DNA of 64,000 bases, taken from Escherichia coli (GTDB lineage: Bacteria > Pseudomonadota > Gammaproteobacteria > Enterobacterales > Enterobacteriaceae). A program made the position numbers and the translations under genes. Below, in pieces: positions 6,561 through 56,994 of this stretch. The notes beneath the pieces are model-generated. The model was given only the letters and a program-made list of their open reading frames with translations, made no database searches and had not been told where the DNA came from. The stretch's first letter is position 1. Each line of letters starts with the position of its first letter. The stretch lies in assembly GCF_050320075.1 (NCBI RefSeq), contig NZ_CP190022.1, one strand, 5' to 3'.

Positions 6561-6590
6561 AAAGGACGCTGTTGCGTCCTTTTTTCTTTT
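6561..6590 (+). terminator. Rho-independent terminator of the parMR operon
   Basis: GGACGC-TGTT-GCGTCC hairpin followed by a T-run immediately after the parR stop. Confidence 0.6.
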
Positions 6591-6944
6591 CCGACAAAGG
6601 ATGTCGCCGGGCTCCTCTTTTTACTGCGCCGGCTGACGCGGCGCGGCAGAAACGCTGCCTGTGGTCAGTGTCCCGCGTCCGGCGGGCACGGGACGGGCGC
6701 TTTTACCGCTCCCGGCTGGCGTCGGTGACAGTGTACGCCAGCCAGTCGCCCTTTTCTGATGAACGCCCTTCAAGCCGCTTTCGCGGCATAACCTTGCCGT
6801 CAAAAAGACGACGGCTGCGGTATTCCACGGTCGGCCTGACCCGTTACCGGACGCGGTGAACAGCCCACAGGCAGCGGGGAACGGGCGCTACAGGGGCGCC
6901 CTCCCGGTGCTCTCTGCTGAAGCAGAAGTGAGAGGAAAATTCCC

Positions 6945-7250
6945 ATGCCAAACTGGTGCTCGAATCGTATGTATTTTTCTGGTGAACCGGCACAGATCGC
7001 TGAGATTAAACGACTGGCCAGCGGCGCAGTCACACCGTTTTATCGCCGCGCCACAAATGAAGGTATTCAGCTGTTTCTGGCCGGAAGTGCCGGACTTCTG
7101 CAGACCACTGAAGATGTGCGGTTTGAACCATGTCCCGGACTGACGCCTGCCGGAAACGCGGGGTGCAGCGCCTGCGGCGCTGCCGGCCCGGCTTTCCGGT
7201 CAGAAGGTAGTGTATGGCTGTATGCCAGGAACAGGTGTGATATTCCGTGA
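6945..7250 (+). CDS. Hypothetical leading-region protein (about 100 aa), possibly 3'-truncated by the Frpo-like repeat
   Basis: AGAGGAAA RBS 8 nt upstream of ATG 6945; ORF runs to within about 40 bp of repeat copy 1 (7288). Confidence 0.35.
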   Translation: MPNWCSNRMYFSGEPAQIAEIKRLASGAVTPFYRRATNEGIQLFLAGSAGLLQTTEDVRFEPCPGLTPAGNAGCSACGAAGPAFRSEGSVWLYARNRCDIP

Positions 7251-7287: not shown

Positions 7288-7790
7288 CTTCGGCTCCCGG
7301 CTGCCTGGCGGCATCCGGTCGTCAGGCCCGACTACGACAGGCAGCTGCTGGCGCACCCGCCAGTCTCCGCCGAACCCGCTGGCGCGGTTTCGGGCTGTCG
7401 CTACGGTCCGATGCGTGAAAACCCGGGCTTGCAGCGACCGTTCCGGTCGCGCCGCCCCTGTCGCGCCGTGACCTGCGCTCCCTGCACACCTGACGGTGTG
7501 TGAGGAAACTGCGCCTGATGGCGCAGCAGTCTTCCCTCCTGCCGCCACCTCTGCGGCCTGTTTCCCGCTGTGGACTTTCCGGGGGGCAGACGTAACCCCC
7601 TCCCGTTCCATCTGTCCAGGGTGAGATGCACCGGCCACAAAATTTTTAGCCATGAACCCGGCTAAAAATTTTGCGTCCGCCCCCGGACAGCTGTCCCGTG
7701 AGGCGGTAAACGGGCCCCCATCGGAAAGGTCCACTGCGGGGAGAAACCCCTGTGAAGTGGACGGCAGGAGGAGCTTTCGCTCCTCTGAAG
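7288..7790 (+). repeat. Frpo/ssi-like single-strand promoter repeat, copy 1 (upstream of ssb)
   Basis: About 500 bp GC-rich non-coding block shared near-identically with 13641-14140 and (3' half) 16717-17045; contains long imperfect palindromes; ends about 60 bp before the ssb RBS. Confidence 0.7.
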
Positions 7791-7854: not shown

Positions 7855-8382
7855 ATGAGTGCACGTGGTATCAACAAGGTCATCCTCGTCGGGCGTCTGG
7901 GCAATGATCCGGAAGTCCGTTACATCCCCAACGGGGGCGCAGTGGCAAACCTGCAGGTGGCCACGTCAGAAAGCTGGCGCGACAAACAGACGGGGGAGAT
8001 GCGGGAGCAGACGGAATGGCACCGCGTGGTGCTGTTCGGCAAGCTCGCGGAAGTGGCAGGTGAATATCTGCGCAAGGGCGCGCAGGTCTACATCGAGGGG
8101 CAACTCCGTACCCGTAGCTGGGAAGATAACGGTATCACCCGTTACGTCACTGAAATTCTTGTTAAGACCACGGGCACCATGCAGATGCTGGGGAGTGCAC
8201 CACAGCAGAACGCTCAGGCGCAACCGAAGCCTCAGCAGAATGGGCAGCCACAGAGTGCTGACGCGACGAAAAAAGGTGGCGCGAAAACGAAAGGCCGTGG
8301 ACGTAAGGCCGCGCAGCCCGAGTCTCAGCCGCAACCGCCGGAGGGGGAGGATTACGGGTTTTCAGACGATATCCCGTTCTGA
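7855..8382 (+). CDS. ssb: Plasmid single-stranded DNA-binding protein
   Basis: OB-fold SSB N-terminus ([24 protein letters not shown]), Gly/Gln/Pro-rich linker and acidic C-terminal tail DDIPF; AGGAGG RBS. Confidence 0.95.
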
Positions 8383-11900: not shown

Positions 11901-12493
11901 TGAAATCAGACGAAAAATATCAGGTTCCCGTGTGGATGCGACCTCTGTTGCCGTTGCTCTGCAACACCGGGGGGAACGATCCGGAAGAACTGCTGAATGA
12001 TACAGCAACCACTGTCAGTGCGAATGTTGTCCGTTATGTTCTGATAGTTGCTGTGCGGTCGCAGGTTGATCTGCTGCAGATTCTGTACAGGAAAGGGCTG
12101 TTGCGCACAGAGATACCAGGTGGCTTTTCACCGGAAGAAGCGCAGGCACTCCTGGATAATCTGGTGCGCAGCCATATCAGCAGGGCGCTGTCGGGTGAGC
12201 GAATGGCAGCCCGTGACAGAAATGCCGATCTGGCCTGGATTCGACAGCAACTGGTCGATGCCGCCTGGTTTGTCCGTGCCACACTGGAGGCGCATGGGAT
12301 GGGCGTCGGAAATGAGAGTCCCCCTGCTCAGCCGGAGACAATGCCGGACATACAGACACGGGAACTGGTGATGTTGATCAAGCGACTGGCATCATCGCTG
12401 AAAGCGGTGAAACCGGACAGTTGTGTGGTGCGTGAAGCGCAGGACTGGCTGCGCGACAGAAAACTTGTGGGCATCACGGATGTTCTTCGGTGA
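11897..12493 (+). CDS. Hypothetical leading-region protein (198 aa), translationally coupled to psiA
   Basis: ATG 11897 overlaps the psiA stop (ATGA) with GGAGAA RBS inside psiA; no family recognised. Confidence 0.55.
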   Translation: MMKSDEKYQVPVWMRPLLPLLCNTGGNDPEELLNDTATTVSANVVRYVLIVAVRSQVDLLQILYRKGLLRTEIPGGFSPEEAQALLDNLVRSHISRALSGERMAARDRNADLAWIRQQLVDAAWFVRATLEAHGMGVGNESPPAQPETMPDIQTRELVMLIKRLASSLKAVKPDSCVVREAQDWLRDRKLVGITDVLR

Positions 12494-12957
12494 ACCAGTG
12501 GAGGTATGCTTGAGGGGCAGGGACATGCCGGTCATGATCGTTTCGTTCCAGGGGTGGTCTGGAGATCATGCGGCGTGTCCTCTGCTCTCGCCGGAATAAG
12601 GACGTCGCCGGCGGCTCCGCTTTTACCCGGCCATGCGGGGCATGGCCTTGTGGGTTTTCAGGTATGAAGCCATCGTGTCGTGTGCGGGCTGTGCCGTGCC
12701 TCCATCGTAGCCGGGCTTCTGTGGGCGGGATGCAAGGTAAGATGAACCGCTGCGGTCACCCGGTCCCTCCTTCCCGTCTGCCGTGATTTTCCGGTCGTTC
12801 ACCCGCTCAGATTTCGCGGTCTCACCCTCCAACTCCCGTCAGCCGTGCGCGTCGGGCTGCGGCTTTCCTTGCGCCCTTGCATCCCTGCAGGCCCGGCAAA
12901 GATGGAGGCACGGCACCGCCCGGTGTCGCAGAACATGTGACTATGGAGGATTCGGGA

Positions 12958-13458
12958 ATGTCTGTTGTTGCACCTGCTGTATACGTTGGAACCTGGCACA
13001 AATATAACTGCGGAAGCATCGCCGGCCGCTGGTTTGACCTGACCACGTTTGATGATGAACGCGATTTTTTCGCCGCCTGCCGTGCCCTTCACCAGGATGA
13101 AACCGATCCGGAACTGATGTTTCAGGATTATGAGGGATTCCCGGGGAATATGGCCTCTGAATGTCATATCAACTGGGCCTGGGTTGAAGGCTTCCGCCGG
13201 GCACGGGATGAAGGCTGCGAAGAGGCTTATCGTCTCTGGGTGGATGATACCGGTGAGACGGATTTTGACAGCTTCCGCGATGCCTGGTGGGGCGAGGCTG
13301 ACAGTGAGGAGGCTTTTGCGGTTGAGTTCGTCAGTGATACCGGCCTGCTGGCTGACGTGCCGGAGACGGTGGCGCTCTATTTTGACTATGAGGCGTATGC
13401 GCGGGATTTATTCCTGGACTCCTTCACCTTTATTGACGGTCATGTGTTCCGTCGGTGA
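12958..13458 (+). CDS. ardA: Antirestriction protein ArdA (DNA mimic inhibiting type I restriction-modification)
   Basis: Translation MSVVAPAVYVGTWHKYNCGSIAGRWFDLTTFDDERDFFAACRALHQDE...DSFTFIDGHVFRR matches ArdA; very acidic; GGAGG RBS; track ORF extends upstream to 12877. Confidence 0.9.
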   Translation: MSVVAPAVYVGTWHKYNCGSIAGRWFDLTTFDDERDFFAACRALHQDETDPELMFQDYEGFPGNMASECHINWAWVEGFRRARDEGCEEAYRLWVDDTGETDFDSFRDAWWGEADSEEAFAVEFVSDTGLLADVPETVALYFDYEAYARDLFLDSFTFIDGHVFRR

Positions 13459-13640: not shown

Positions 13641-14140
13641 CTTCGGCTCCCGGCTGCCTGGCGGCATCCGGTCGTCGGCCCGACTCCGACAGGCAGCTGC
13701 TGGCGCACCCGCCAGTCTCCGCCGAACCCGCTGGCGCGGTTTCGGGCTGCCGCTACGGTCCGATGTCTGAAAAACCAGGCCTGCAGCGACCGTTCCGGTC
13801 GCGCCGCCCCTGTCGCGCCGGAAACGGCGCTCCCTGCACACCTGACGGTGTGTAAGGCCACTGCGCCTGATGGCGCAGTTGTCTGCCCTTCCGCCGCCAC
13901 CCCTGCGGCCTGTTTCCCGCTGTGGACTTTCCGGGGGCTGAAGCGGCCACAACACGTCTCAGCCGTCCAGGGGAAGATGTACCAGCCACAAAACTTTTTG
14001 CCGCAGGCGTCAAAAACTTTTGCGTCTGCCCCCGGACAACTGCCCCGTGCCGTGGCAGTCGCTGCCCCATCGGAAAGGTCCACTGCGGGGAGAAACCCCG
14101 AAGAAGTGGACGGCAGAAGGGGCTTTCGCCCCTCCGGGGA
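13641..14140 (+). repeat. Frpo/ssi-like single-strand promoter repeat, copy 2 (upstream of the 14188 ORF)
   Basis: Near-identical to copy 1 over about 500 bp; ends about 50 bp before ATG 14188. Confidence 0.7.
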
Positions 14141-16511: not shown

Positions 16512-16527
16512 AAAACACCTTTGAAAA

Positions 16528-16611
16528 AGTGAAAAAACTTCACTTTATTTTATCATCATAATCATCAAATCAGCGCGATAAATAAGTGTGAAAAAGTGAA
16601 GAAATTTCACT
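16528..16611. promoter_or_regulatory. Two operator-like palindromes (AGTGAA-N5-TTCACT) in an AT-rich promoter region
   Basis: AGTGAAAAAACTTCACT at 16528-16544 and AGTGAAGAAATTTCACT at 16595-16611, each embedded in AAAAGTGAA...TTCACTTTT; immediately upstream of the minus-strand HTH gene start (16511). Confidence 0.45.
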
Positions 16612-16716
16612 TTTTTTTGATTGTGGGTGTCGTGCTGTTTTCTCTGTTTTCACCTGTGCGGGAGTGGTGTGCCAGTGACCACCACATGCCATTGTTGTGC
16701 CGTCGTTTTTCTTCAG

Positions 16717-17045
16717 TCGCGCCGGATGCGGCGCTCCCTGCACACCTGACGGTGTGTAAGGCCACTGCGCCTGATGGCGCAGCTGTCTCTGCCTGTCTGC
16801 CGCCGCACTGCGGCCCGTTTTCCGCAGACGGACTTTCCGGGGGTACATACACGACCACATCCCGTTTCAGTCGTCCAGGGGAGAGATGTACCAGCCACAA
16901 AACTTTTTGCCGCAGGCGTCAAAAACTTTTGCGTCTGCCCCCGGACAACTGCCCCGTGACGTGGTGAGCGTCCCCCGTCGGAAAGGTCCACTGCGGGGAA
17001 ATCCCCGAAGACCCGGACGGCAGAAGGAGCTTCGCTCCTCCGGGA
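16717..17045 (+). repeat. Frpo/ssi-like single-strand promoter repeat, copy 3 (5'-truncated; upstream of the 17089 ORF)
   Basis: Matches the 3' 330 bp of copies 1 and 2; ends about 45 bp before the 17089 start. Confidence 0.7.
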
Positions 17046-56172: not shown

Positions 56173-56994
56173 TTACCAGGGTAATAACGGTATACTGAAT
56201 AACTCAGCAGGTAATATTTTTCCTGTCATCAGATATTCTGCCTGTGCCGGACGAAGCGTTACGGTCCGGACGGATGTCTTTGCATATAAATTGCGGGCAG
56301 TGTGAAACCAGTTTTCTTTTTCCTTATTCATTCTTACAGGTGATAAAGAAAGTACAGGATAAATGATGGCTTTATTAATTTCTTTTTTCTTGCGGAACAG
56401 TACACCGCAATATTCCTGTGAATGAACACCGGCAAAAGGAAAACTGTGCCAGATAATAATATCCACATTATCGCTGGCTGAAATAAGCTGGCAGAACGCA
56501 TCCTGTGTTGCTGGCCACTCACCGGCACGGCTTAAAGGATAACGTACCCTGCCGTTCAGCCATTCCGGGTTGAGATAAAACCAGTCAGCCAGAGCAGTCA
56601 GAATCTCTCCTGTCAGATAATCTGCGAGTTTGTCCGGGTCACGGAAAACGGCAGGACGGATATTCCAGGGAGCCAGTAACGTTGTCATCGTTGTTACGCA
56701 GACATCATGTGCCTGCATGATGTGTTCTGTCCGGCAGATAAGACGGTGAACGATGTTTTCAGCCGGGAGAAACATTTCAGTTAATGCATCTTCGACCAGG
56801 ATACGCGTCAGGTCGGATACAGAAAGGGAGAGTTGCTCGCTCATTATTCCGAGTGCTTCTCTGACGCCCTGCGGATAACGGATCTGCAGGGGAGTGGACT
56901 GCAACTGGCGGTTATTGAGCAGAGCTTCGCTAATCCGGGCCCTGTCAATGGAGAGCATCATGCGGGCAGCAATGCCTGTGCTGTTTGGTTTCAT
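56173..56994 (-). CDS. Transfer-region protein of unknown function (273 aa)
   Basis: ORF in operon context between the rci side and the OMP gene. Confidence 0.45.
   Translation of the reverse strand: MKPNSTGIAARMMLSIDRARISEALLNNRQLQSTPLQIRYPQGVREALGIMSEQLSLSVSDLTRILVEDALTEMFLPAENIVHRLICRTEHIMQAHDVCVTTMTTLLAPWNIRPAVFRDPDKLADYLTGEILTALADWFYLNPEWLNGRVRYPLSRAGEWPATQDAFCQLISASDNVDIIIWHSFPFAGVHSQEYCGVLFRKKKEINKAIIYPVLSLSPVRMNKEKENWFHTARNLYAKTSVRTVTLRPAQAEYLMTGKILPAELFSIPLLPW

Follow-up and report, generated by a model that had tools for sequence, protein, structure and literature searches.

A hairpin upstream of ardA in an IncI-complex plasmid as a predicted member of the class 2 single-stranded DNA promoter family

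Single-strand promoters of leading regions and the gap before ardA

Several hairpins in the leading regions of conjugative plasmids have been described as promoters of the transferred strand. The class 1 elements—Frpo1 and Frpo2 of F, and ssi1-3 of ColIb-P9—are long hairpins of the transferred strand, each of which rebuilds a sigma-70 promoter whose activity is limited to the single-stranded state (Masai & Arai 1997; Bates et al. 1999; Couturier et al. 2023, PMC9849209). In pESBL, six operons are zygotically induced, each of them placed after a large hairpin (Wen et al., NAR 2025, PMC12672017). Three of these hairpins are Frpo/ssi homologues and constitute class 1, the hairpins upstream of ardA and klcA are alike and constitute class 2, and class 3 is the hairpin that precedes the M.EcoGIX methylase; 5' RACE located the transcription starts of all six operons, in agreement with in-silico promoter predictions (PMC12672017). 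The class 2 copy of F is ssp2, which drives yfgB and halts synthesis of the complementary strand where its stem ends, a block that lasts until UvrD removes it and that prolongs expression from single-strand promoters (bioRxiv 10.64898/2026.01.09.698686). The same F element was found independently and named Frpo3 (bioRxiv 10.1101/2025.04.03.647016).

The window analyzed here, a stretch of 64,000 nucleotides from Escherichia coli, spans the leading region, oriT, and the transfer genes of a conjugative plasmid of the IncI complex. Its plus strand carries, in this order, ssb (7855-8382), a parB-like gene, psiB, psiA, a conserved ORF (11864/11897-12493, with its stop at 12493), an intergenic gap (12494-12957, defined by the ORF list and Pfam and belonging to neither strand), and ardA (12958-13458, ATG at 12958), the gene that the promoter would serve, which is identified by Pfam (PF07275, ArdA, E = 5e-30). 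Further on, from about 18.5 kb, lie nikA and nikB, towards which the leading genes point, and the gene order up to nikA/nikB is collinear with that of R64 and pESBL-EA11. Among the matches listed in a megablast search against plasmids, the closest is pEGY2, an IncK2/Z plasmid (98.3%). As a separate observation, pEGY2 has an IS21-family insertion (L001 4110-6417) in the ORF preceding the gap, with the class 2 cassette and ardA intact. The direction of transfer in the window is that established for the IncI1 oriT. In IncI1 plasmids, the leading region enters the recipient first, with its genes pointing to oriT (PMC11541004, PMC12672017). It follows that the transferred strand is the minus strand of the window, which also serves as the template for these genes.

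The gap measures 464 nt and is 63.1% G+C, whereas the window as a whole has 52.6% and the genes on either side of the gap 55%, and the ORF list contains only mechanical ORFs of at most 74 aa within it. These figures bear out a first-pass annotation, made from the letters alone, that had described a GC-rich stretch of about 460 bp without a convincing ORF. Because the gap ORFs hold frame-breaking indels of 1, 4, and 5 nt among homologous copies, there is no conserved reading frame, and we rejected a protein-coding gap, since these indels separate copies in which base pairing is kept. The same annotation had stated that the gap is not a copy of the three Frpo-like repeats, and rightly so: within the window, blastn with a word size of 7 matched the gap only to itself and to its own inverted arms. 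Those repeats are the class 1 (Frpo/ssi) copies of the window (7288-7785, 13641-14134, and 16716-17006), which have no detectable sequence similarity to the element described here, although the principle appears to be the same. In pESBL, the corresponding ssi elements precede ssb, follow ardA, and precede the DUF4942 gene, with 86-92% identity to the window copies.

Within the gap, positions 12598-12950 (minus strand) form a cassette that is common to the klcA-linked copies of IncF and IncI plasmids, and that megablast against plasmids finds in at least 5000 plasmid records. Over its 353 nt, it aligns end to end with positions 56395-56747 of F (87.2%), and it aligns with pESBL-EA11 both upstream of ardA (88.7%) and upstream of klcA (85.6%). 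Its nhmmer E value is 6e-100. The gene that immediately follows F 56395-56747 encodes a protein sharing 93% identity with R64 ArdB, which is the same figure as that given for yfgB in the ssp2 preprint (bioRxiv 10.64898/2026.01.09.698686). More generally, the cassette directly precedes a klcA/ardB-type anti-restriction gene in IncF plasmids, and IncI1 plasmids carry it twice, ahead of klcA and again ahead of ardA. Because its homologues have been published as class 2, ssp2, or Frpo3, we assign the window element, on homology, to a described family of single-stranded DNA promoters, already known and published in 2025-2026 under these three names. Four traits of class 2 are found together here: homology, a position in the leading region upstream of an anti-restriction gene, a stable stem-loop of the transferred strand, and stem boxes oriented to ardA. 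The suggestion in the first-pass annotation that the gap might be a distinct single-strand promoter element thus agrees with its homology to hairpins whose operons have 5' RACE-mapped starts, and with the conservation of structure and boxes, with covariation, that is described below. A scan of contigs with the 15-mer GTGCCGTGCCTCCAT gave, among the matches listed, mostly chance hits, the true copies (L065, L067, and L073) being of a known close type.

The comparison with the two best-described members of the family reveals similarities and differences. As in the window, the class 2 hairpin of pESBL stands directly upstream of ardA, is a long transferred-strand hairpin with -35 and -10 boxes in its stem, and is surrounded by three class 1 repeats and one class 3 hairpin. 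However, pESBL has both an ardA-linked and a klcA-linked copy, whereas the window plasmid, which is IncK2/Z-like, has the ardA-linked copy only. The klcA and methylase operons are absent from the window, and blastn and nhmmer found no second class 2 copy in it besides 12598-12950, so that the ardA-linked copy is the sole one. F ssp2 has the same architecture as the window element and likewise drives an anti-restriction gene of the leading region, in that case yfgB (klcA/ardB). It is located upstream of ssb, psiB, and psiA, whose single-stranded state is prolonged by the roadblock, whereas the window copy is located downstream of ssb, psiB, and psiA.

A conserved hairpin with promoter-like boxes in its stem

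The first-pass annotation had called the gap palindromic in places, which understates what is found. An inverted repeat with 32-nt arms that are 91% complementary (12685-12716 / 12891-12922) forms the base of a 238-nt hairpin on the minus, transferred strand (12685-12922), a feature defined by the inverted repeat, the fold, and covariation. Taken alone, the minus-strand hairpin reaches -72.5 kcal/mol (z = -6.52, 0 of 200 shuffles as good), and the whole gap folded as single-stranded DNA gives z = -4.75 for the plus strand and -4.96 for the minus strand (0 of 100 shuffles as good). The two strands of a hairpin-forming DNA fold almost alike, and the choice of strand rests on energy asymmetry, the orientation of the boxes, and gene context. 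Counts of G·T versus A·C mispairs do not discriminate the folding strand, and we used instead the energy difference between the strands, which favors the transferred strand over the plus strand by 5-12 kcal/mol in 12/12 copies.

In alignment A3, which contains 12 class 2 copies with hairpin identities as low as 52-63%, 97.2% of the stem cells are paired. Compensatory changes occur at 27 of the 73 pairs, including pairs of the apical helices; most of this covariation comes from one diverged clade of three sequences, so that fewer independent events lie behind it than a count of cells would imply. Column shuffles gave an expectation of 11.6 +/- 2.4 compensated pairs (0 of 500 reached 27), and sliding the partners by 1-3 columns left between 0 and 5. 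The apical extension past the -35 box (12736-12876, minus strand, with its apex loop near 12807-12815) is invariant at 136 of 152 columns among 8 close copies, and in its helices 9 and 10 the diverged clade shows compensatory changes at 10 pairs. The single-stranded DNA structure prediction and the comparison with related ardA upstream regions, both of which the first-pass annotation had proposed as checks, thus yielded a conserved hairpin and a cassette that is homologous in pESBL, R64, and pEGY2.

The diverged copies were found upstream of distant ardA homologues (53-60% protein identity), with nhmmer E values from 1e-13 to 4e-83. They lie upstream of klcA-ardA in Klebsiella IncFII(K) plasmids, and upstream of ardA in MOBP plasmids of Enterobacter and Citrobacter; the region upstream of ardA in an IncN plasmid (L130) is not homologous. 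In the Enterobacter and Citrobacter MOBP plasmids we also observed a second diverged class 2-like hairpin (L132 1068-1328 and L131 972-1275; nhmmer E = 7e-52 and 2e-46), located one gene ahead of the ardA-linked copy, which makes these tandem class 2 elements.

Read on the transferred strand, the 3' arm of the hairpin contains TTGCAT, 20 nt, TACGAT, and then GGAGGCACGGCAC. We take TTGCAT (12735 down to 12730, minus strand), on the arm with the non-template role, as the putative -35 hexamer and TACGAT (12709 down to 12704, minus strand), on the same arm, as the putative -10 hexamer; this assignment, together with a start near 12910, is our own reading of sequence and pairing. In the 12 copies, TTGCA is invariant, with T as the sixth base in 11 of them and A (TTGCAA) in one IncFIA/IncFIC copy, and TAnnnT is invariant, the -10 box being TACGAT, TAAGAT, or TAAAGT. 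Both TTGCA and TAnnnT are kept even in the copies that are 52-63% identical. The -35 box is completely paired in the stem, a 7-bp GC clamp (GCCCGGC) lies ahead of the -10 box, and the 16 bp past the -10 box are perfectly paired. In the window, T(-12) and C(-10) of the -10 box face mismatches, and in F, R64, and the diverged copies there is a 3 x 3 bubble at -11 to -9; every copy has unpaired positions in the -10 box with solid duplex on either side. The spacer on the promoter-bearing arm is 20 nt in the window and 15 nt in F, R64, and the diverged clade. Neither length falls within the 16-18 nt optimum, and activity must therefore depend on the internal loop and its asymmetry.

The partner of these boxes on the template arm (12877-12903, plus strand) contains TTGCAT (12877-12882), 15 nt, and AAAGAT (12898-12903), an arrangement that as duplex would be a poor promoter, and a promoter scan of 12300-13100 found no sigma-70 consensus duplex promoter. 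From the geometry of the stem, the predicted transcription start is at about A12910 (12908-12912, plus strand), 7 nt after the -10 box and about 12 nt from the base of the hairpin. A Shine-Dalgarno sequence, GGAGGA (12945-12950, plus strand), is located 7 nt upstream of the ardA start codon. Because the boxes lie in the stem and the predicted start is so close to the hairpin base, the ardA leader would be about 48 nt long rather than 460.

A proposed burst of ardA expression and competing explanations

The homology, structure, covariation, conserved boxes, and genomic context observed in this plasmid point, with high probability, to a class 2 single-strand promoter that produces a burst of ardA expression on entry and is off after duplex conversion. 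The promoter activity that we infer would unfold in several steps. The minus strand would enter the recipient 5' end first, from oriT near 18.4 kb, and positions 12922 down to 12685 of the entering strand would fold into the 238-nt hairpin. In the lower stem, the 3' arm would provide TTGCAT and the partly unpaired TACGAT as non-template, and the 5' arm would be the template. Host sigma-70 RNA polymerase would initiate near 12910 and exit via the base of the hairpin, and a short-leader ardA mRNA would be made before the complementary strand exists. Duplex formation would remove the hairpin and leave TTGCAT-15 nt-AAAGAT, and the burst of expression would be transient because this duplex remnant is predicted to be a poor promoter. 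ArdA must block type I restriction within minutes of DNA entry, and a single-strand promoter would explain how this is achieved.

By analogy with F ssp2, the hairpin would probably also halt the growing complementary strand when it reaches about 12685 from the left, until the stem is unwound by UvrD, a roadblock activity that has been demonstrated for F ssp2 only (bioRxiv 10.64898/2026.01.09.698686). A more specific version, which we put forward tentatively and hold at less than an even chance, is that the ardA-linked copy acts as a UvrD-resolved roadblock that would hold only ardA and the 5.5 kb by oriT single-stranded, and that the bulge variant discussed below may modulate promoter strength or stalling. 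If this were true, the single-stranded 5.5 kb would include two class 1 promoters, and the timing logic would differ from that of F.

Some of the same features could be read differently. The first-pass annotation had offered, besides a promoter, a structured 5' leader: the whole gap would be transcribed from upstream—for example, from the Frpo/ssi element before ssb—and the hairpin would control translation or termination of ardA as RNA. The plus strand does fold well (z = -4.75), and read-through is possible since the upstream genes are all co-oriented. However, the plus-strand hairpin is the weaker one by 5-12 kcal/mol in 12/12 copies, the invariant TTGCA(T) and TAnnnT are on the minus-strand arm and face ardA, and a conserved small hairpin with a T-rich tail stands ahead of the main hairpin. 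Furthermore, Rfam gave no match (0 covariance-model matches at E <= 1 on both strands of 12300-13200), the same cassette serves the unrelated gene klcA, and the 5' RACE starts of homologues agree with promoter predictions within the hairpin (PMC12672017). With boxes in the stem, a predicted leader of about 48 nt, and a more stable transferred strand, this part of the annotation is not supported, and we consider a leader RNA very unlikely. An even smaller probability is given to a mobile-element remnant or terminal repeat (MITE-like), or a cruciform recombination site, with no role in expression. It would fit the sharp edges of the cassette, its occurrence before different genes, and the exchange between contexts that is suggested by a window hairpin 98% identical to an IncFIA klcA-linked copy and 86.5% identical to the ardA-linked copy of R64. 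Yet the orientation relative to the downstream gene and to the transferred strand is constant, no target duplications and no transposase were found nearby, compensatory changes extend up to the apex, the promoter-like boxes are invariant, and induction and start sites have been published for homologues (PMC12672017).

Slightly more probable than either of these, but still improbable, is that the element is mainly an ssi-type priming signal or a replication barrier, with ardA transcription as a by-product. Frpo-type transcripts can prime DNA synthesis, the homologous F ssp2 is a cis-acting roadblock resolved by UvrD, and conservation over the apical 140 nt exceeds what a promoter by itself would seem to require. 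On the other hand, the cassette is always directly upstream of an anti-restriction gene, with a Shine-Dalgarno sequence about 35 nt past the predicted start, and replacing ssp2 of F by ssp3, which has equal promoter strength and no roadblock, restored transfer against type II restriction (bioRxiv 10.64898/2026.01.09.698686). Because of this effect of the replacement in F, the promoter function is real and separable, and the priming or barrier function complements a promoter rather than excluding it.

Stem variants, cassette exchange, and neighboring elements

Two versions of the lower stem exist. In the window, pEGY2, and some IncFIA/IncFIC plasmids, the stem is of a "type A" with 5 extra nt on the promoter-bearing arm, and its spacers are 20 nt on that arm and 15 nt on the template arm. 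In F, R64, pESBL, and the diverged clade, by contrast, there are 4-5 extra nt on the template arm, and the spacers are 15 and 19 nt. The ardA-linked hairpin of the window is 97.9% identical to an IncFIA klcA-linked copy and 86.5% identical to the ardA-linked copy of R64, and the two copies of R64 are 99.6% alike. Judging from these identities, the cassette has evidently been exchanged between gene contexts and plasmid families, or homogenized within a plasmid. This bulge-flipped variant, which moves between ardA and klcA contexts as well as from one plasmid group (IncI-complex or IncF) to the other, could adjust promoter strength or stall time.

The window is a well-supported extra instance of published biology, to which the comparison makes modest additions. 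Judged against the main texts of the published papers, the new comparative elements are the covariation up to the apex, the near-invariant TTGCAT, the invariant TAnnnT, and a -10 box that always has unpaired bases. The diverged clade in Klebsiella, Enterobacter, and Citrobacter plasmids, the bulge on the opposite arm, and the exchange of the cassette between contexts are likewise additions of this kind. Recognition of the cassette lets annotators mark a functional non-coding feature in the at least 5000 plasmid records that contain it, in almost all of which it is unannotated.

Two smaller hairpins share the gap with the main one. On its upstream side, the cassette starts with a short motif followed by a small GC-rich hairpin, GGCCATGC-GGG-GCATGGCC (12629-12647, plus strand), which has an 8-bp stem and a T-rich tail, TTGTGGGTTTTC (12648-12659). 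The stem is invariant or compensated in the cassette copies, its form in Klebsiella IncFII(K) being GGCCCGG-AGG-CCGGGCC. This element (12629-12659) is possibly a terminator that insulates the promoter from upstream transcription; the terminator scan, with its rule of 5 T in 8 bases, which the tail misses, found nothing. A separate 70-nt hairpin (12517-12587, plus strand; z = -5.75 on the plus and -5.45 on the minus strand) lies outside the shared cassette. It is conserved in pEGY2, R64, and pESBL and absent from klcA-linked copies, and it occurs solely where the gap precedes ardA in IncI-complex plasmids. Its stem differs between the window and R64 by two substitutions that make G·T pairs when read on the plus strand, a hint that it may act in RNA, as a 3' structure of the operon upstream.

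Elsewhere in the window, positions 6583-6930 (arms 6653-6682 / 6847-6876) are 95-96% identical to the sequence upstream of the methylase in R64, pESBL-EA11, and F, and are on this homology identified as a class 3 single-stranded DNA promoter (ssp3). The inverted repeat at 6653-6876 was considered as a degenerate class 2 copy and rejected, as it is this class 3 element. What follows it here is a 101-aa DUF1281-like ORF (6945-7250), not a methylase. A weak partial match (E about 2e-6) to the class 2 arm with the -35 and -10 boxes was seen at L134 1279-1356, L003 5401-5478, and L007 5662-5739. In pESBL and R64 it sits upstream of the DUF1281 gene, its location in F is similar, and it could be a further related promoter remnant. 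Finally, two AT-rich direct repeats (16513-16551 / 16580-16618), 82% identical, 67 nt apart, and containing GTGAAAAAGTGAA-like motifs, are located between an Rpn-family gene and the third class 1 repeat, and may be operator or promoter repeats.
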